Below, one piece after another: positions 34,169-43,280 of a stretch of 64,000 bases of DNA. The notes under the pieces are model-generated. The model had not been told where the DNA came from and ran no database searches. It saw only the letters and a program-made list of their open reading frames with translations. Positions within the stretch are counted from its first letter, which is position 1. Every line of letters starts with the position of its first letter. This DNA comes from Chloroflexia bacterium (GTDB lineage: Bacteria; Chloroflexota; Chloroflexia; QHBQ01), in the NCBI GenBank assembly GCA_038229595.1, contig JBBROH010000001.1, positions 50,633-114,632 on the forward strand, read 5' to 3'. Both the position numbers and the translations under genes were made by a program.

Positions 34169-35668
34169 ATGAGACCGCTAACCCCCTCAACTCGTCCTCG
34201 TCTTTTTGCCGCCGAGCAGTACGAACCAGACCTGCTGGCCCGCCGTAAGCGGTTTGGCACCATCGTGCTGGGTTTCTCCATCTTTGTCAGTCTGATCTCC
34301 CTGTTTACTTCGCTCACCTTGTCCAAACCCAACCTGGTCCTCAGTGCTATGGCGGCTCTGGCCGTCGCTGTTGGTGTCATCCTCTTGGTTGCTTTGGGTC
34401 GTGGCTACGTCAATGTGGTGAACTCGATCACTACGGTCTTTGCCACCCTGACGTTGATCAGTAGCGCGCACTTTGCCGATGGCATCTACGGCTCTACGGC
34501 CTCCCTACTGCTGGTTACGCTGGCTTACACCCCCTTCCTTGTTCCTCGCCCAGTCTTTGTAGCCAACCTGATCTCTACCCTGGTTGGCACTACCATCGTC
34601 CTAACTTACGAGTTGAACGGCAACCCACCCGTGCTTGCCCTCGACCCGAAGTCGCTCTCTTTCTCCTACGCCCTATCAACCGTGATATTGGCAGCGATCA
34701 TGTACTACTTCAGTGCGGGTTTGAACAGTGCAGTACGGCGGCTAACGGCGCAGAGTGCCGACCTCAGCCGGGCGAACCAGGAGCTAACCCACCAGCAGCA
34801 GGTCCGCCAGCTTGCCGCCGAGCAGGTCTCTACCGCTGCAAACCATATGGCTGCCTTTACTGGTGAGCAGACAGTGCGGGTGCGCGATGCCGTTAGTGCC
34901 TTCAACCAGACGCAGGCCAGCGCAGAGGAGTTGAGTCGCATCTCCCAGCAGATCGCTGCGGTCGCCGCCCAGGTGCGTGGGGCTGCGGCTAGCACTTTGC
35001 AGCAGTCGCGCAGCACCCAGGAGCAGGTAGCCGACGGCATCGGCGAGATCGCCCTGGTACTCGGCCAGGTCAACGTGATTGCCAGCACCGTCAGCACCCT
35101 GGAGGAGAGTTCGCGGGGTATAGGGCTGGTGGTCACCTCGATCCAGGAGATCGCCGACGAAGTGCGCTTGCTAGCCCTCAACGCTGCCATCGAAGCAGCG
35201 GGGGCGGGCAGCTATGGCCGCCGCTTTGGGGTGATCGCCAATGAGGTCAGCAGCCTGTCCGACTCGGCAGAGCAGCAGACGCGGATAGTCAGCCAGCAGT
35301 TGCAGCAGTTGCAAGCAGCGATCCAGGCGGTGGCTGGGGCTAGCAAGCAGGGTATCGCGCTCGCGGGGCGCAGCGAACACTACCTGCGGAGCATAGGCCA
35401 GGCCGCCGCCCAGATCAACGACCTGAGCGACCAGACCGACCGCCTCGCCGACTCGATCTCGCAGACGACCGGCCAGCAGCGGCTAGCCAGCCAGGAGGTG
35501 GTTGAGCAGATGCGTACTCTCGTGCGGCTAGCCCAGTCGGAGGCAGATAGCGCGACGGTGGGCGCAGAAGCCGCCAGCAACCTGCGCCTGGTTGCCAGCG
35601 GCCTTGCAGACAGCCGGGACTACGCGGCTCCCTCGCTGGTTGGGCCGAAGGTGAGCAAGCCGTCGTAG
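34169..35668 (+). CDS. methyl-accepting chemotaxis protein (multi-TM N-terminus)
   Basis: Core motif EVRLLALNAAIEAAGAGSYGRRFGVIANEVSSLS. Same architecture as the gene at 12074-13528. Confidence 0.85.
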   Translation: MRPLTPSTRPRLFAAEQYEPDLLARRKRFGTIVLGFSIFVSLISLFTSLTLSKPNLVLSAMAALAVAVGVILLVALGRGYVNVVNSITTVFATLTLISSAHFADGIYGSTASLLLVTLAYTPFLVPRPVFVANLISTLVGTTIVLTYELNGNPPVLALDPKSLSFSYALSTVILAAIMYYFSAGLNSAVRRLTAQSADLSRANQELTHQQQVRQLAAEQVSTAANHMAAFTGEQTVRVRDAVSAFNQTQASAEELSRISQQIAAVAAQVRGAAASTLQQSRSTQEQVADGIGEIALVLGQVNVIASTVSTLEESSRGIGLVVTSIQEIADEVRLLALNAAIEAAGAGSYGRRFGVIANEVSSLSDSAEQQTRIVSQQLQQLQAAIQAVAGASKQGIALAGRSEHYLRSIGQAAAQINDLSDQTDRLADSISQTTGQQRLASQEVVEQMRTLVRLAQSEADSATVGAEAASNLRLVASGLADSRDYAAPSLVGPKVSKPS

Positions 35669-36771
35669 GGTGAAGGGTCTACCATCTTTAGCAAGAGCAG
35701 GCTCACTTCGCGGCCCTTCGCCAGCATAAAGAGGATGTTGCGCTCGTCTGCGCTCAAGCCCGTAGCGTTGACCAGCCTTGCATACTGCTTCATGTACTCG
35801 CGCTGGTCGCGCTCTCCCACCTCTGCGCCAGCCAGGGCGGCCAGGATCGCGGCATGGGCGGCGCGTAGCTTAGCATCACGCGCAGCCACCGCCGCTTCGA
35901 TAGCAGCCGCGACTACCTCGGTCTTGAGCCGAAACTCCTCTGGCAGCTTCTTGACCATCTCCATCAAGCTGCCGTCGGCCATCGCCTCGTGGATGCGCCT
36001 GCTGGTCAGGCCGCTAACCAGGCGGTGCAGTTCAAGGTACTCGCTGGTCTTGAGCTTGACCCGCAGGCCGTTGCTATAGCGTAGCACCCAGCCCTCCACC
36101 CCCCGTGAGGCGGCGGCCAATGCAACCAGCGACGGCACAGCCATGCTCTCCGCCTGCGCCACCAGCTTGAAGCCGTACTGCGCGGCGATCAGTTGCAAGC
36201 TAGCGTAATTGTGGTCGTAGCCATCGGCAATCTCTATCGCGCCGATCAGATAGAGGTTCTCCTCGCCCGCGTAATCTACCACGATGCGGTTTTGGGGGTA
36301 GATGATCTCGAATAGCAAGGTGGTGTGCAGCGGGAATTGCGCGCTGGCGAAGTTGCGGCGCACGAACGCGGTTGCCCACTGGGCCTGCGCTGAGTTGAAT
36401 GCACCCCGCGTGGCGATGCGGTAAACCCCCGCGTACCAGAAGCCAATGCCCAGTGAGCCGTCCAGCTTGATCGTCACCTCTGGCGGCTCTGGCGGCAGGT
36501 TGTTCAGCGTGGTCTGCGGCATCTCGCCCAGGTTGAAGAACTTACTGAAAGGACGAGCGGCTAGCTTCGCCGTCGGCCAGTGGAAGATCAGGCCACGGCA
36601 CATCTGCTCGATCTCCGTCCAGCCGTGATCGTAGACTGCCTGCTCGGTGTAGTTGAGGATCAGATACTCACCCTCGACCTGGGCGCGGATGTTGCCCAGG
36701 GCGCGGTAAGCCTCGCGGTTCGCTCCATGCTGGCGCACTGCTTCGGTGATCGTCTCCAATGCGTCAATCAT
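35620..36771 (-). CDS. T4 RnlA (Rnl1)-family RNA ligase
   Basis: Aligns by eye with T4 Rnl1: MCRGLIF, ARPFSKFFNLGE, adenylylation motif IKLDGSL, LFEIIYPQNRIVV, EGWVLRY.NGLRVKLKT.EY. Start at ATG 36771 (GAAGGG RBS), not the 538-aa ORF-track start. Confidence 0.8.
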   Translation of the reverse strand: MIDALETITEAVRQHGANREAYRALGNIRAQVEGEYLILNYTEQAVYDHGWTEIEQMCRGLIFHWPTAKLAARPFSKFFNLGEMPQTTLNNLPPEPPEVTIKLDGSLGIGFWYAGVYRIATRGAFNSAQAQWATAFVRRNFASAQFPLHTTLLFEIIYPQNRIVVDYAGEENLYLIGAIEIADGYDHNYASLQLIAAQYGFKLVAQAESMAVPSLVALAAASRGVEGWVLRYSNGLRVKLKTSEYLELHRLVSGLTSRRIHEAMADGSLMEMVKKLPEEFRLKTEVVAAAIEAAVAARDAKLRAAHAAILAALAGAEVGERDQREYMKQYARLVNATGLSADERNILFMLAKGREVSLLLLKMVDPSPYDGLLTFGPTSEGAA

Positions 36772-36797
36772 CGCTGACCCTTCATGTTTGCCAGAGC

Positions 36798-38546
36798 TTA
36801 GCGGTTCTCGCGCTGCACCGCCCAGCCGAGGCGGGCCGAGCGCAGGCGCAAGCCCAAGCGCGGAGCCACCTGCAACAAGCCGCCTTCGATCCGCCGTAGC
36901 CGCCGCCCACCGAGTAGGCGCGCGGCCTTGCGGTAGAGGCGCAGGCTGGCGGCAGCCCTGATCGCCGCCAGGTAGTCCAGCCCCCACAGCCCCATCCGCC
37001 TTGCCCCCAGCACGCCGAAGGCCAGCAGCAGGATGCGCGGGTAGACGCGCAGGGTGTGCAGCGTCACGCGGGTATAGTCGCCCAGCGAAGTCGTGTCCTG
37101 GAAGAAGCGGCGGCTGAGGTCGGGGCCGAGGTCGGCTAGCACGCGGCAAAAGATGTTCATGATCTGGTTCACCTCGTTCTGCTTGCCCTGGGCTAGCCCC
37201 ACCTGGGTCGGCGACATGAAACGGCTGAAGACCCACATCATGCCCAGGTTCTGCTGGTGCGCCCCGATCCGCCGCAGCGAACCAGCATCTAGCAGGTTGC
37301 GGCTGAGGGCGAGATCGAGCAAACTGGTGATGCGGCCAAGATTGCGAACGTGGCTGCCGAAGCCGCAGAAGGTGAGCGGCGATTGCTGGGCTGCCGCGTC
37401 GCCAATGCTGATGATCCGCTCTGTGGCCCCACTACCCGCCCGCACGCGCAGGCCGTCGCGGTGGCGAGCGGGGATGAAGCCGTAGACGGGCTTGCAGTGC
37501 TGGAAATCTTTGCCAATCCTCTTGTAAGTGGGTAGCAGGCGGAAGTAGTCCTCAAACAGGGCCAGCAGGTCGCACTCGCCACCCTCGTCCAGGTTGGCAT
37601 AGTAGAAGACGTAGGTAGTCATCTCATCTTCGCGGCCAGGGAAGCCCTCCCAGATCAACTGCCGCCCCCCCTGCGCGTCGGCCACACTCACCAGCACGTC
37701 ACCCACTCCCGGATCAACCTCATCTATCGCGTTGCCTTGCACAAAGCCTTGCGCCACCGTGCCAACCGTCGGGCAAACCGCACTGAAGGGCCGCCCGTCG
37801 TTGAGTGCCTGCGCCAGGGGAGAGGTGCTGCCCATGTCATCCACCAGCAGCGCAGCCCTGAAGCGACAAACCGTCGCGCTGTCATCCTCCACTTCCACCA
37901 CAACCCTGCCCACCTTGCCGCCCGCTTGCACGTAGGCGTGGCGGAAGCCATAGCCAGAGCGGATCAGGCTGCCAGTGCCAGACTGCTCGATCTTCTGCAC
38001 GCAGAGGGCCAGCAGTGCGCTGGCATCCAACGCGAGGTCTAGTACGCCAGTCAGCTTGAGGTCTGCCGCTGGCACCCTGATCGTATTGGGGGCGAAGCGG
38101 ATCACGCCCGTATGGTAGCGACGCTGGATGATCGGCTCAAGCTCGGCCCAGGTGAACAGGCCGAGGCCAACCAGCCTGCCCAGTTCAGCCGCGCTGATGT
38201 TCCACTCGCGGTGGGTGCTGCCGATCTCCTTGCGGTCGAAGACCAGCACTTTGCGGCGGTAGCGGGTTGCTAGCAATGCCGCATCCAGCAGACCCAACCC
38301 AGCCCCAGCGTAGATCACCTCAAACTCACCGTCGCTGGCTGGCAGCACGTCCACATAGCTGATCACCGGTGCAGGGTCGTGCTGCACGAAGTAGCGTTGC
38401 CAGGCCCGATTGAGGCCGTAGGCGTGGCCCAGCGCGTCCAGGCCGCCCGGCATGGCGGTGAAGGCAGCTACGGTTAGGGGATACTGGGCGCGTAGTTGCT
38501 CGGCCAGGGCTTCAGCGGTGCTGTGCAGGTTAGCGGTTGCGGTCAT
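36798..38546 (-). CDS. FAD-dependent oxidoreductase, CruA/CruP (lycopene cyclase-like) family
   Basis: Dinucleotide-binding VIYAGAGLGLLDAALLA...VLVFD. IGDAAAQQSPLTFCGFG resembles the CruA/CruP signature as I recall it. Confidence 0.6.
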   Translation of the reverse strand: MTATANLHSTAEALAEQLRAQYPLTVAAFTAMPGGLDALGHAYGLNRAWQRYFVQHDPAPVISYVDVLPASDGEFEVIYAGAGLGLLDAALLATRYRRKVLVFDRKEIGSTHREWNISAAELGRLVGLGLFTWAELEPIIQRRYHTGVIRFAPNTIRVPAADLKLTGVLDLALDASALLALCVQKIEQSGTGSLIRSGYGFRHAYVQAGGKVGRVVVEVEDDSATVCRFRAALLVDDMGSTSPLAQALNDGRPFSAVCPTVGTVAQGFVQGNAIDEVDPGVGDVLVSVADAQGGRQLIWEGFPGREDEMTTYVFYYANLDEGGECDLLALFEDYFRLLPTYKRIGKDFQHCKPVYGFIPARHRDGLRVRAGSGATERIISIGDAAAQQSPLTFCGFGSHVRNLGRITSLLDLALSRNLLDAGSLRRIGAHQQNLGMMWVFSRFMSPTQVGLAQGKQNEVNQIMNIFCRVLADLGPDLSRRFFQDTTSLGDYTRVTLHTLRVYPRILLLAFGVLGARRMGLWGLDYLAAIRAAASLRLYRKAARLLGGRRLRRIEGGLLQVAPRLGLRLRSARLGWAVQRENR

Positions 38547-38648
38547 TGGCTCGTCCTCTATGTGATGATCTGCTGATCTATTGTAACGGATCGGCTACCT
38601 GATAACCAGCCTCGCCGCTGCTTAGCCGCTCACGGCGCGGTCGATCTG

Positions 38649-39515
38649 CTACCGCCTGTGCAAGGTCAGCACTGCGATCTCTGGGCGGGAGCGCAGGCGG
38701 TGGGGGATGCCGCTCATGCCGATGCCGCGACTGACATAGAGCGGCAAGCCGTGATGATCGCAGTAGCCGCGCAACAACTCCTCGTGCTTGTGCGGCAGGT
38801 GTGGCGCGCCGAAGAAGGGCAGGATCACCTGGCCGCCATGCGTGTGGCCGCAGAGCATCAGGTCTACGCGCTGCCCAGCGGTGCGCTCCACGAAGTCGGG
38901 GTTGTGGGCCAGCAGCACGCGGCACTGATTGGCGGGCAGGCCGCGTAGGGCGGCAGCTAGGTCGTAGTTGTGCGAACGCAAATCCTCAACCCCAGCGAAG
39001 TGCAGCCGCTCTCCCCCACGCTCCAGGCTGGCATGCTGGTTGCGTAGCACCTGTGCGCCGCCGCTTTGCAGCCCGCGCACGTTGGCCTGCTCGTGGCCGA
39101 AGTAGTCGTGATTGCCGAGGACGGCGAAGATGCCCTCCCTTGCCACCAGACCAGCAAGCAGGGTCGGGAAGCGGTAGCCAGCCCTGCGCGTTACGTAGTC
39201 ACCGAGCAGGCAGATCACATCTGGCTGCTGGGCGTTGGTCATCTCTACCACGCGGTGCAACTGCCGTTCGCCGACCCGCCAGCCGTAATGTATGTCGCTG
39301 ATCACCGCCAGCCGCAGACCGTCGAAGCTGGGGGGCAGGCCAGGTAGGCGGATGGTAGTGTGGGTTACTTCCAGCCAGAAGGGTTCGATGAAGTAGCTGT
39401 AGCCCAACGTGCCGATACCCAACACTGCCGACCCCAGCACCTTCGCCAGCAGCCGCACCTTGCGCCGCCTGAACCGTTGCCGCCCCCAGCCCTCCCGCTC
39501 GTCCGCCACCGTCAC
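38649..39515 (-). CDS. membrane-anchored calcineurin-like metallophosphoesterase (YkuE-like)
   Basis: N-terminal TM segment. Motifs ISDIHYG, LGDYV, GNHD, GHTHGG. Its GTG start overlaps the upstream TGA (GTGA). Confidence 0.85.
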   Translation of the reverse strand: MTVADEREGWGRQRFRRRKVRLLAKVLGSAVLGIGTLGYSYFIEPFWLEVTHTTIRLPGLPPSFDGLRLAVISDIHYGWRVGERQLHRVVEMTNAQQPDVICLLGDYVTRRAGYRFPTLLAGLVAREGIFAVLGNHDYFGHEQANVRGLQSGGAQVLRNQHASLERGGERLHFAGVEDLRSHNYDLAAALRGLPANQCRVLLAHNPDFVERTAGQRVDLMLCGHTHGGQVILPFFGAPHLPHKHEELLRGYCDHHGLPLYVSRGIGMSGIPHRLRSRPEIAVLTLHRR

Positions 39516-41413
39516 CGGCTGCTGACCCCCGCCGCCTTCAATGTCGCCTGCTGAATGGCGAACAACTCTGCCAACCCCTTGTCGGCGAGGTTGAGTAGCT
39601 GATCGAGGGCGGCGCGGTCGAAGGGCTTGCCCTCCGCCGTCCCCTGCACTTCGATGTACTTGCCACTGCCGGTCTGCACCACGTTGAAGTCTACCTCGGC
39701 CCGCGAGTCCTCCTCGTAGGCGAGATCGAGGCGCGCTTCGCCCGCGACGATGCCGACGCTGATGGCGGCCAGCGGCTCAAGCAGGATGCGTTTGCTGCCG
39801 ACGCGGTGCGCCTGCCGCAGCTTGTCTACCGCCAGGGCAAGGGCAACATAGGAGCCAGTAATCGCGGCGGTGCGGGTGCCACCGTCGGCGTTGATCACGT
39901 CGCAGTCCACCGTCAACTGGATGTCGCCGAGGGCGGCCAGGTCGGTGATCCCGCGCAGGCTGCGCCCGATCAGCCGTTGAATCTCTTGGGTGCGCCCGCT
40001 GACCTTGCCTGTACTGGCTTCGCGGCGGTTGCGACCGGGGGTAGCCGAGGGCAACATACTGTACTCCGCCGTCACCCAGCCGCCCTTGCCGACGCGGTGC
40101 GGTGGCAGATCGGTCTCGGCAGTGACGGCGCAGATCACCTGGGTGCGACCAAACTCAACCAGCACCGAAGCGGTAGGGAAGACCTGATAGTTGGTGGTGA
40201 TCTTGATGGGGCGCAGGTCGGTGGCGGCGCGACCATCTGGGCGAGCATTGTTCGGCACGGTTAACTCCAGGGGCGACTGGATTTGCTGGAAGGCACGGCT
40301 CACCCTTGCGGCTGCGTGCAAGGTAAAGGCTACCATGCTGCTGCTGATCGGCGGCTGGTTGGGGTACTCCTCTGGGTAAAAGAGGCTCTCCAACAGCGTC
40401 TCGGCCAGCACAAAAGGCCAGGCAACGGTAAGGGCGGCGGCCAGCAGGTCGCGCTCTATTATACTCAATTTGCACTCGCTCTGATACTCGCTGAGAAAGA
40501 GGTCGAACAGCCTTGCGTTGGCCTGCCGTTCGGGGCGCAACTCTGGCTGACCGCCGCCGCTGAAGACCAGCACGCTGAAGTAGAGTAGAGCCTGGGCCAG
40601 TTCGAGCAGGCGGGGAGCGTAGCGCGAGCTATCCCAGCCCCGCACGGTGGTTACTTCGCCCCGTCGGTTGAAGGTGAGATTGTAGCCGTGATAGTTGCCG
40701 TGGATGTGTAGCAGGCGCAGGTGGGGGGCGGCAGCAGCGATGCGGCGGTCGGCCAGGCTGTGGGCATCCGCGATCTGGTCGAGGGCAGTATCCGCCCGCT
40801 GACGGTCGGCGGGGTCGCGCAGGGCAGCTACGTAGTGACTGAGGCGATTCAGCCGCGCTCGCCCCTGCCCCAGCATTGACCACTGCTCCGGCCAGTAGTT
40901 GGTCTCGCCTGCGTACTGTTCGCTGATGCGGTGTAGCTTGCCGAGGGTACGGGCTGCACTGGCTACCTGCGTTGGGCTGTCGTAGACGAAGTTCACCCCT
41001 TCCACCCACGCTTGCAGTTCGTAGCTCTGGCCCGCCACCGCCAGGGTGGTCGCGCCGTCGGGCATGGCAATCAGGTTGGGGACGGGCAGCCCGTAGCGAC
41101 AGACGTGCAGCATGATCGCTTGCTGGTGGCGATAATCCTGGGGGCTGGCGGCTGGGTCGTGGTGGTGCAACAGGTAGACGCGCCCCCACGCATCGCTGAG
41201 GCGCAGGGCTAGCCGCCCACCATGCAGATTCAGGTGGCGGTCGAGGCGCAGCCCAGGGAGGCCATAGCTGGCGGCGGTTGCCGCAACCAAGGGGGCAAAC
41301 CGCTGGCGCACCTCCCTGGCTTCGAGCGCGTGATTGCGCGGTGGCACGACGAGGGGTGGAGTGAGCGAGCGGTCTGCGTCCGGCGCAGCCACCTCATGCG
41401 GTTGTGAAAGCAT
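39512..41413 (-). CDS. rph: fusion protein: N-terminal APH/ChoK-like kinase-fold domain plus C-terminal ribonuclease PH
   Basis: C-terminal ~240 aa: RPDGRAATDLRPI...GWVTAEYSMLP..T..R...E...GKVSGRTQEIQRLIGRSLR...DCDVINADGGTRTAAITG, which is RNase PH. The N-terminal ~390 aa have a kinase-fold catalytic loop reading HGNYHGYN instead of HGDxxxxN. Confidence 0.85.
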   Translation of the reverse strand: MLSQPHEVAAPDADRSLTPPLVVPPRNHALEAREVRQRFAPLVAATAASYGLPGLRLDRHLNLHGGRLALRLSDAWGRVYLLHHHDPAASPQDYRHQQAIMLHVCRYGLPVPNLIAMPDGATTLAVAGQSYELQAWVEGVNFVYDSPTQVASAARTLGKLHRISEQYAGETNYWPEQWSMLGQGRARLNRLSHYVAALRDPADRQRADTALDQIADAHSLADRRIAAAAPHLRLLHIHGNYHGYNLTFNRRGEVTTVRGWDSSRYAPRLLELAQALLYFSVLVFSGGGQPELRPERQANARLFDLFLSEYQSECKLSIIERDLLAAALTVAWPFVLAETLLESLFYPEEYPNQPPISSSMVAFTLHAAARVSRAFQQIQSPLELTVPNNARPDGRAATDLRPIKITTNYQVFPTASVLVEFGRTQVICAVTAETDLPPHRVGKGGWVTAEYSMLPSATPGRNRREASTGKVSGRTQEIQRLIGRSLRGITDLAALGDIQLTVDCDVINADGGTRTAAITGSYVALALAVDKLRQAHRVGSKRILLEPLAAISVGIVAGEARLDLAYEEDSRAEVDFNVVQTGSGKYIEVQGTAEGKPFDRAALDQLLNLADKGLAELFAIQQATLKAAGVSSR

Positions 41414-41474: not shown

Positions 41475-42854
41475 TCAGGATGGCGCGTCTCCGCGCTCAC
41501 GCAGCTCTTCCAATCGCTGCTTTATCGCGGCTTCGCGCCCGCGATCTGTGGGGATGTAGTAGCGGCGGCCCTGCAAGGCAGCAGGCAATCCCTCTTGTTG
41601 TACGTAGCCACCTTCATAATCATGGGCATACTTGTAGCCCGCGCCATAGCCGAGCGACTTCATCAACCCGGTGGGAGCGTTCCGCAGGTGCAGCGGCACT
41701 GGATCGGCCCGCGTGTTCCGCACGTCGTCCTTGACCGCCTTGTAGCCCGCATAGAGCGCGTTGCTCTTGGGCGCGACGCTGCAATAAACTACAGCCTGGG
41801 CCAGGGCCAGTTCCGCTTCGGGCAGGCCAATAAACTGGATCGCCTGCTGCGCCGCCATGCAAACAACCAGGGCTTGCGGGTCGGCCATGCCGATATCCTC
41901 GCTGGCGAAGCGCACAATGCGGCGGATGATATACTGCGCGTCCTCCCCCGCCTCCAGCATCCGCCCCAACCAGTAGAGGGCTGCGTCGGGGTCGCTGCCG
42001 CGCATGGTCTTGTGCAAGGCAGAGATGATGTCGTAGTGCTGCTCCCCATCCTTGTCGTAGAGCAGGGCTTTATGCTGCATCGCGTCCTCGATGGTGGCGA
42101 CGGTGATCGTGCTGCGGCCAGTCTCGTCTGGCGGAGCAGCCAGGGCGGCCAGTTCCAGGGCGTTCAGGGCAGTACGAGCATCACCGTTAGCCAACGTCAC
42201 CAGCAGGCTGACAGCCCCCTCCTCCAGCACTACGTTCGTGGCTCCCAACCCCCGCTCGTTGTCGCTGAGGGCGCGCTGCACCAGGGCGCGGATGTAGTCG
42301 TCGTCCAGAGCCTGGAGGACGAAGACGCGGGCGCGCGAGAGCAGGGCAGAGTTGACCTCGAAACTGGGGTTCTCGGTGGTGGCCCCGATCAAGGTGATCG
42401 TGCCATCCTCGACATAGGGCAGGATCACATCCTGTTGAGCCTTGTTGAAGCGGTGGATTTCGTCGATAAAAAGAACAGTGCGCTGACTACTCTGCAAGCG
42501 GCGATCTTTGGCCTCTTGGATCAGGCGGCGCAGGTCAGCCACGCCCGCCGCCACTGCGCTGATCGGCACAAAGTGGCCGCTGACCGCCTCGGCGAGGAGG
42601 TGCGCGAGGGTAGTCTTGCCGCTACCGGGCGGCCCCCAAAGGACCAGCGAGTTGAGGTTGCCGCTCTCCACCGCCTTCCGCAGCACCCGCCCAGGGCCAA
42701 TTACCTGCTCCTGGCCCACGTACTCGCCGAGGCTGCGCGGGCGCATCCGGGCGGCGAGGGGGCTGTAGCCCTCCGCTTGCTCGGCTCGCTGCCCGTGCAG
42801 GTCGATCATCCCCAACTGGTGGTCGCCAGCCTGCCTGTCTTTCGCCTTCGCCAC
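41475..42854 (-). CDS. rarA: replication-associated recombination protein A (AAA+ ATPase)
   Basis: Walker A GPPGSGKTT, Walker B FIDEIHRFNK, and the MgsA C-terminal domain (SALHKTMRGSDPDAALYWL). Confidence 0.9.
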   Translation of the reverse strand: MAKAKDRQAGDHQLGMIDLHGQRAEQAEGYSPLAARMRPRSLGEYVGQEQVIGPGRVLRKAVESGNLNSLVLWGPPGSGKTTLAHLLAEAVSGHFVPISAVAAGVADLRRLIQEAKDRRLQSSQRTVLFIDEIHRFNKAQQDVILPYVEDGTITLIGATTENPSFEVNSALLSRARVFVLQALDDDYIRALVQRALSDNERGLGATNVVLEEGAVSLLVTLANGDARTALNALELAALAAPPDETGRSTITVATIEDAMQHKALLYDKDGEQHYDIISALHKTMRGSDPDAALYWLGRMLEAGEDAQYIIRRIVRFASEDIGMADPQALVVCMAAQQAIQFIGLPEAELALAQAVVYCSVAPKSNALYAGYKAVKDDVRNTRADPVPLHLRNAPTGLMKSLGYGAGYKYAHDYEGGYVQQEGLPAALQGRRYYIPTDRGREAAIKQRLEELRERGDAPS

Positions 42855-42917: not shown

Positions 42918-43280
42918 TTACGCAAGCTGAGCTGGTGGTTGGCCTAAGCTGATCGTCTCACCAATCAGCTTCTCGGCCCACTCGCGGGTGAAGGGAAACC
43001 AGCCCAACTGGTGGAAGCAGTCGGGTTGGCGAACGAAGTTGACCAGCCCAAAGCGGCTCTGTGCTGCGCTCGGCTGATGTTCGATCCAGATGCAGTGGCG
43101 GGGCTGACCCGCGTGCTGCCAGACCGCCGCCGCTAGCTGGCAGACTGCCCCACCGCTAGCGGGTTGCGCGACCGGCTCGTAGAGGACGATGGTCAACTGA
43201 CCCTCTACCTGGTAGACCCGCACGTGATAGGCCGCCTGGCTCTCCTGCGCTCTATAGATGTAGTCGTTTACCTTTGCCAC
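42918..43280 (-). CDS. hypothetical protein
   Basis: 120-aa ORF with coding-like composition. No recognisable motif. Confidence 0.45.
   Translation of the reverse strand: MAKVNDYIYRAQESQAAYHVRVYQVEGQLTIVLYEPVAQPASGGAVCQLAAAVWQHAGQPRHCIWIEHQPSAAQSRFGLVNFVRQPDCFHQLGWFPFTREWAEKLIGETISLGQPPAQLA

Follow-up and report, generated by a model that had tools for sequence, protein, structure and literature searches.

Kinase folds placed directly before a ribonuclease domain in one polypeptide are known from RNase L (pseudokinase-KEN) and Ire1 (kinase-KEN), and the kinase-fold domain of RNase L is inactive (structure paper cited in PMC12599244). Fusions of RNase PH (Rph) are common in their own right; Rph-RdgB/Ham1 dominates our list of matches, and N-terminal MBL-fold, Germane and unassigned extensions are found too. 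The gene described here lies at 39512-41413 on the minus strand of a 64,000-nt stretch of a Chloroflexia bacterium genome (the window; assembly GCA_038229595.1, contig JBBROH010000001.1, positions 50,633 to 114,632), where an APH/choline-kinase-fold domain is joined to a complete RNase PH. The layout is that of RNase L and Ire1; however, a phosphorolytic RNase PH ring subunit takes the place of the KEN endonuclease and an APH-type fold that of the Hanks-type one, and the likeness is one of layout only, not of homology. Our literature searches turned up no paper on a kinase-like/RNase PH fusion, and the bacterial pseudokinases treated in a 2025 review all belong to Hanks-type families. Our analyses confirm one genuine gene, and the fusion most likely came about as a side effect of stop-codon loss, not as a new device for regulation.

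The fusion gene was read directly in four sources: the window, an ENA megahit contig (L002), an NCBI metagenome-assembled genome (MAG) of the same genus as the window ("Chloroflexota bacterium GL122_UP_metabat_70", G001/L024) and a JGI metagenome contig (L025). Five nucleotide differences set L002 apart from L024, so these two are separate assemblies. Among 5.8 billion protein clusters searched by word index, one other, P0001 (97% identical, 633 aa), has the full architecture, so that the fusion amounts to a single 90%-identity cluster in that collection. P0001 holds seven distinct sequences, all of 633 aa, on 12 contigs (NCBI, ENA, JGI/IMG, Logan, GEM); one is identical to the window protein, and the window protein and the seven variants align without gaps over 633 columns. 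Between the two species represented by the window and L002, 90 of 1902 nt are substituted with zero indels. An earlier reading of the locus made from the letters alone (the sequence-only reading) had allowed that a frameshift might hide two separate genes, and we find the frame open and indel-free in all independent assemblies. The source genome is an 87%-complete MAG in 318 contigs, which invites the suspicion that assembly, binning or sequencing joined two neighbours by mistake; the gapless 633-aa variants from independent assemblies (megahit ENA, JGI, NCBI MAGs, Logan), together with the 90 substitutions unaccompanied by any indel, exclude such an artefact, to which we assign a negligible probability.

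The N-terminal half has few close relatives. An exhaustive phmmer search of 1.84 billion representative proteins with residues 1-390 gave 360 matches, only one of them below 1e-30: P0002, a standalone protein of 374 aa that is 51% identical. After it come generic APH-family proteins at about 25-35% identity, and phmmer against the PDB sequences gave no match at E ≤ 1. On the fusion protein, Pfam assigns residues 78-281 to APH (PF01636; E 3.8e-15; score 56.7 bits, cut-off 23.2). A profile built from an alignment of 61 family sequences (A2) matched PDB entries at 6.6e-33 to 4e-19, the best being the homoserine kinase II 2ppq (6.6e-33), with NahK, an Alicyclobacillus APH, YtaA, YihE, the ACAD11 kinase domain and amicoumacin kinase among the others. 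The AlphaFold2 (AF2) model of the N-domain made with A2 reached a predicted local distance difference test score (pLDDT) of 88.8 and a predicted template modelling score (pTM) of 0.88, and Foldseek placed it closest to 2ppq, 4pdy, 4wh2 and 2q83 (E 1e-13 to 1e-11), all top matches being APH-fold kinases. AF2 on the full-length fusion from a single sequence was unusable (pLDDT 35), and the fold evidence is that of the N-domain model. As a predicted structure, the APH/ELK kinase fold of the N-domain is secure.

Compared with the solved APH/ELK small-molecule kinases (2PPQ; NahK 4WH1-3/4OCJ; YtaA/CotS-like 2Q83; YihE/SrkA 1ZYL; amicoumacin kinase 6SUM), the N-domain shares their bilobal architecture (Foldseek E 1e-13 to 1e-10, template modelling score by target 0.67-0.76), but its identity to them is just 12-18% and it lacks the beta3 Lys/Arg, the catalytic Asp and the Mg-binding Asp. 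Of the 61 sequences in A2, 35 have Lys and 23 Arg at column 83 in strand beta3, the residue that anchors the phosphates of ATP; the window protein has His there and P0002 Gln. The catalytic Asp of HGDxxxxN falls in column 240: 56 of 61 sequences have it, and the sole proteins with Asn there are the window protein and P0002, whose loop reads HGNYHGGN. At column 259, the first Asp of DFD and the counterpart of the DFG Asp, 57 of 61 sequences have Asp and both proteins have Gly ("VRGWD" in the window); this is the Asp common to the solved kinases (2ppq "IDFY", NahK "IDLD") and the Mg ligand. All three columns are close to invariant in the family, the window protein and P0002 being the two that depart from it. 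N245 and D261 are retained in the fusion, and P0121 and later relatives keep the canonical K/R-D-N-D pattern. By the sequence definition, the N-domain is a pseudokinase with three motifs lost. We infer that kinase activity is absent: without the Lys/Arg at the H83 position, the Asp at N240 and the Asp at G259, the domain would be unable to carry out canonical phosphoryl transfer.

Much of this was anticipated by the sequence-only reading, which proposed an aminoglycoside/choline-kinase-like fold for the N-terminal ~390 aa, an Asp-to-Asn change in the catalytic loop and the absence of the usual N-lobe Lys. The fold stands on the Pfam, AF2 and Foldseek results, with homoserine kinase II, NahK and YtaA at the top; the motif it quoted, HGNYHGYN, falls exactly on residues 238-245 (nt 40702-40679); and His occupies position 83, where 58 of 61 family members have Lys or Arg, within the second of the two segments it cited (LALRL, residues 68-72; VYLLHHH, residues 79-85). 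The loss of the Mg-binding Asp at G259 is a third, beyond the two it had reported.

The conservation between the window protein and P0002 is not spread evenly. Identity is 76% over beta4-beta5 and the hinge and 69% over the catalytic loop and DFG region, against 51% overall, and since it peaks around the former active site, this pattern suggests that the cleft is still used and still does something. A charge-based role in nucleic-acid binding was considered for the N-domain and found no support, its isoelectric point of 7.0-8.0 being within the family range. The gene surroundings of P0121 and P0122, the nearest relatives whose catalytic residues are intact, offered no clue to function (an MFS transporter and a prephenate dehydratase, on short contigs).

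The C-terminal half is, by sequence, a complete RNase PH. The equivalog model TIGR01966 scores 316.2 bits (cut-off 141.5), with 1-235 of its 236 positions placed on residues 391-625, and Pfam finds RNase_PH (PF01138) at residues 400-528 and RNase_PH_C (PF03725) at 547-612. Over its full length it can be aligned with the solved enzymes 3dd6, 1r6l, 3b4t, 1oyp and 1udn (E 1e-74 to 5e-61), and the blocks GRTxEIQRLIGRxLR, DCDVIxADGGTRTAxITG and EDSxAExDxNVV are present in the residue alignment to 3dd6 and 1r6l and invariant in the seven variants, in agreement with the complete RNase PH that had been read in the last ~240 aa. In a TIGR01966 search of the whole genome the fusion Rph scores 319.5 bits and is the sole rph of this 87%-complete MAG. 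Relative to the bacterial enzymes of known structure (1OYP, B. subtilis; 1R6L, P. aeruginosa; 1UDN, A. aeolicus; 3B4T; 3DD6), it shows a full-length match and the syntenic rarA-rph-metallophosphoesterase position; the difference is the N-terminal kinase-fold domain of roughly 385 aa, which is absent from the other RNase PH proteins found. A second, weak Rph match in the genome (G000:C5:35371-35781, L004) lies inside a 798-aa open frame taken as PNPase, somewhat longer than typical PNPases.

A scan of 185,579 GTDB species genomes found the fusion only in G001. Among 40 relatives, the N-domain likewise occurs only in this same-genus genome, where it is fused, and a standalone rph was found in 18 of 18 other relatives of the order that gave a match (open frames mostly about 250-290 aa, one of 455 aa). 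In the collections covered, the fusion is thus rare and, by its distribution, young, restricted to one genus of uncultured Chloroflexota. The neighbouring lineages indicate how it may have arisen. In the sister genus (G002) the locus runs rarA, a 245-nt gap, rph (247 aa) and a metallophosphoesterase (MPE) gene that overlaps the rph stop; in the window it runs rarA, a 61-nt gap, pseudokinase::rph and the same MPE gene overlapping the stop. P0002 is encoded on a 2.3-kb Logan contig (L001) directly 3′ of rarA and has its own stop codon; a convergent gene ends 4 nt past that stop, and P0002 is not adjacent to rph. Over the same region, RarA of the window is 84% identical to that of L001 and 78% to that of G002, so the L001 lineage is closer to the window genus than G002 is. 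Read from this comparison, the pseudokinase gene, already degenerate, adjoined rarA before the fusion. The residue losses predate the fusion because the standalone homolog of the related lineage shares them, and since the same degenerate protein stands alone there and not beside rph, the N-domain probably has a function of its own that is older than the fusion.

The junction itself carries a trace of this history. The window sequence reads F-Q-Q-I-Q-S-P-L-E-L-T-V386-P-N-N-A-R-P-D-G-R; the C-terminus of P0002 aligns at QQI(Q), where the linker begins, and VPNNARPDGR, from V386 on, aligns with MPKNPRPDGR, from Met1 of the G002 Rph. The G002 start, M-P-K-N-P-R-P-D-G-R, is preceded by AAGGAG-N5-ATG, and in the window a GGAG, a 6-nt spacer and a GTG occupy the exact position of those start signals. 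This GGAG-N6-GTG386 element is kept in the second fusion-bearing species, and a GGAG at such a spacing is found by chance at 1.4% of internal in-frame ATG/GTG codons in the long open reading frames (ORFs) of the window. At the other end, the start Met of the fusion protein is common to it and P0002 in the alignment (MLSQPHE and MAPRPHE, respectively). Because a Shine-Dalgarno (SD) sequence and a start codon sit where rph begins in G002, we read the linker as a fossil intergenic spacer and the fusion as the outcome of upstream stop-codon loss. In the ancestor of one genus, an APH-fold pseudokinase gene located between rarA and rph would have lost its stop codon; the 18-nt spacer, still with its GGAG, would now encode SPLELT, and in-frame read-through would have joined a pseudokinase of ~380 aa to a complete RNase PH. 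Translation from the internal SD-GTG at V386 may still yield free Rph.

Selection was compared between the window and L002. Residues 1-380 show a ratio of non-synonymous to synonymous substitution rates (dN/dS) of 0.074 (44 synonymous and 11 non-synonymous changes) and the Rph part one of 0.031 (30 and 3), while the linker SPLELT holds 2 of the 16 amino-acid differences between the two species. Judged by these ratios, both halves of the fusion are under strong purifying selection. We hold it probable, with moderate confidence, that a pseudokinase gene was fused with rph by stop-codon loss, that the two halves function independently and that the fused state is neutral or mildly advantageous. 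The Rph half would most likely do the usual work of RNase PH, the phosphorolytic trimming of 3′ ends on precursors of tRNA and other stable RNAs. The N-domain would still be a functional protein that probably binds a ligand or partner, since it is under purifying selection and the cleft is its best-conserved part. Any mild advantage of the fusion itself might lie, for example, in co-expression or co-localisation. N-terminal additions to Rph appear to be tolerated, since they occur elsewhere (MBL-fold, Germane, unassigned).

Some observations weigh against this account. The fused frame has been kept open over a synonymous divergence of ~0.17 in two species, so a functional advantage of the fused state may exist, and as the fusion is present in just two species-level lineages, a selection test on the fusion itself is almost powerless. 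GGAG precedes the first start codon in just 3 of 36 crude ORFs, which leaves SD dependence in the source genome short of established. The conserved N245, D261, H238 and H242 leave room for non-canonical catalysis in the N-domain, and some pseudokinases are known to perform such catalysis with migrated residues.

Alternatively, the pseudokinase could act as an allosteric sensor, or as a module that recruits substrates, carried by every subunit of the RNase PH ring and gating tRNA 3′-end processing by a nucleotide or metabolite. The purifying selection on the N-domain, the location of its most conserved region in the former active-site cleft, the frame that is open in all seven variants and in two species, and a linker so short (about 6-10 residues) that it must keep the domain near the Rph core are all in line with such a regulatory fusion. 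We nevertheless consider it unlikely: the homolog of the related lineage stands alone, not next to rph, a single genus carries the fusion, the spacer that became the linker is unaltered and has both its SD and its start codon, and neither the 543 Rph-containing matches nor the long Rph proteins checked include another kinase-Rph architecture. The substrate- or ligand-sensing module that the sequence-only reading had envisaged found no supporting evidence. A bolder form of the idea, in which six kinase-fold modules cap the RNase PH hexamer and gate RNA access or ring assembly by ligand, as an independent bacterial counterpart of RNase L/Ire1 caught soon after stop loss, is in our view rather doubtful. 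It is also conceivable that the N-domain is a non-canonical enzyme that dispenses with the Lys/Asp/Asp triad (nucleotidyl transfer, hydrolytic or metal-independent chemistry), possibly acting on RNA ends or nucleotides released by Rph. Some "pseudokinases", such as SelO, proved active with altered chemistry, the four residues named above are conserved, and the cleft is strongly conserved; however, three canonical residues, the Mg ligand included, were lost together, the alignment shows no evident compensating acidic residue, and the subfamily is very small, a single homolog falling below 1e-30 in the 1.84 billion representatives searched. We regard this reading as improbable.

A further reading takes the genes downstream into account and places the fusion in an RNA end-healing and sealing operon, made up of the kinase-like/Rph fusion, the MPE, a flavoprotein-like protein of 582 aa and an Rnl1-type RNA ligase. 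These genes are co-directional (35620-41413), the minus strand shows no terminator-like site from the fusion to the ligase, and the ligase matches PF09511 and TIGR02308. The promoter and terminator scan gave signals at chance level only: the single minus-strand terminator-like match (41809-41792) is inside rarA, and the count of terminator-like matches is not above that of shuffled sequence. RNA repair operons such as T4 Pnk/Rnl1 and bacterial Pnkp/Hen1 combine an active 5′-kinase, a 2′,3′-phosphatase and a linked ligase. Here, in contrast, the kinase-like domain lacks its catalytic residues and belongs to a small-molecule kinase clade rather than to the P-loop polynucleotide kinases, so there would be no 5′-kinase step; the MPE resembles YaeI/LpxG and carries a membrane anchor at its N-terminus; and in G002 an unrelated gene follows rph-MPE and the Rnl1 homolog is on another contig. 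With the linkage not conserved and the enzyme types mismatched, the RNA-repair operon was rejected as very improbable. The coordinates of the fusion ORF, its parts and its immediate neighbours are collected in the table.

Features of the pseudokinase-Rph fusion gene and adjoining genes (positions in the window; residues numbered on the fusion protein)
Feature	Position	Strand	Basis
Pseudokinase-Rph fusion ORF, 633 aa plus stop, ATG start	39512..41413	-	ORF call, Pfam, NCBIfam; frame intact in 7 variants/12 contigs
N-terminal tail, residues 1-27, predicted disordered	41333..41413	-	AF2 pLDDT <50
APH/ELK-fold pseudokinase domain (predicted), residues 28-380	40274..41332	-	Pfam APH, AF2, Foldseek, A2 profile against PDB
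H83, beta3 position	41165..41167	-	Family alignment column 83
Degenerate catalytic loop H238-G-N240-Y-H-G-Y-N245	40679..40702	-	Family alignment; invariant in all 7 variants
G259-W-D261, replacing family D-F-D	40631..40639	-	Family alignment; solved kinases
Linker S380-P-L-E-L-T385, putative former intergenic spacer now in frame	40259..40276	-	Comparison with P0002, G002 and second species
GGAG, putative Shine-Dalgarno core, 6 nt 5′ of GTG386	40265..40268	-	Comparison with G002 rph
GTG (V386), putative former rph start codon	40256..40258	-	Aligns with Met1 of G002 standalone Rph
Complete RNase PH, residues 386-633, conserved blocks intact	39515..40258	-	TIGR01966; solved structures
rarA/mgsA (AAA+ ATPase), upstream neighbour, 61 nt from fusion start	41475..42854	-	Syntenic in G002 and L001
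YaeI/LpxG-like membrane-anchored metallophosphoesterase (MPE)	38649..39515	-	GTG start overlaps fusion stop codon (GTGA)

The neighbours offer some observations of their own. The overlap of the MPE start with the rph stop is found both in the window genus (GTGA) and in G002 (L022, 6816-7652), and rph-MPE looks like a conserved, translationally coupled pair in the place where many bacteria have rdgB after rph. Between the MPE gene and the ligase gene, 36798-38546 (minus strand) encodes the 582-aa protein, which has no Pfam or NCBIfam match, is kept in G001, L002 and L025 and begins with a GxGxxG Rossmann-like motif (VIYAGAGLGLLDAAL...VFDR). The ligase homolog, at 35620-36771 (minus strand), is a 383-aa member of the T4 Rnl1 family by PF09511 (E 1.6e-19), its TIGR02308 score of 52 bits being far below the equivalog cut-off. 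Homologs of Rnl1 type occur in 5 of 5 genomes of the family, in 2 of 16 other genomes of the order and in none of 14 control genomes; adjacency of the ligase to rph-MPE is a feature of the window genus only. On the other side, upstream of rarA, a 120-aa ORF (42918-43280, minus strand) has no family match, and the sole sigma-70-like promoter match on the minus strand (43381-43353) is located just upstream of it.

As a lineage-specific rph fusion, some of which are also N-terminal, the gene has company in Rph-RdgB/Ham1 (annotated as "multifunctional fusion protein" in Enterococcus and Vagococcus), MBL-fold-Rph and Germane-Rph. It differs from Rph-RdgB, which is present in many species, in that its partner is an APH-fold pseudokinase and its range a single genus. 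The sequence-only reading did not recognise the architecture, and rightly so: it is essentially unknown elsewhere, and no kinase-like domain was seen in the other Rph fusions examined. The combination of an MBL-fold domain with RNase PH, on the other hand, recurs in several independent clusters (P0013, P0015, P0018, P0021, P0064), with the MBL-fold domain N-terminal in P0013, the sole cluster in which domain order was checked. MBL-fold-Rph may well be the more widespread and the more interesting fusion of the two.

The pseudokinase-Rph protein is a new, narrow architectural variant of a well-known enzyme, and its narrow distribution limits its general importance. If the N-domain were to regulate Rph, which is the less likely reading on the evidence, RNase PH, an essential-type RNA-processing enzyme, would be seen to be controlled in a new way. 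To our knowledge, bacterial pseudokinases of the APH-fold small-molecule kinase clade have hardly been studied. The N-domain and its standalone homolog represent a very small APH-fold pseudoenzyme subfamily, from that clade and not of Hanks type, which has remained constrained despite three missing catalytic residues. Taken together, the two-gene locus of the outgroup, which lacks the insert, the upstream gene standing alone in the closer lineage, and the ribosome-binding site and start codon left in the linker of the fused genus make this locus an unusually clean and datable case of the birth of a multidomain protein.

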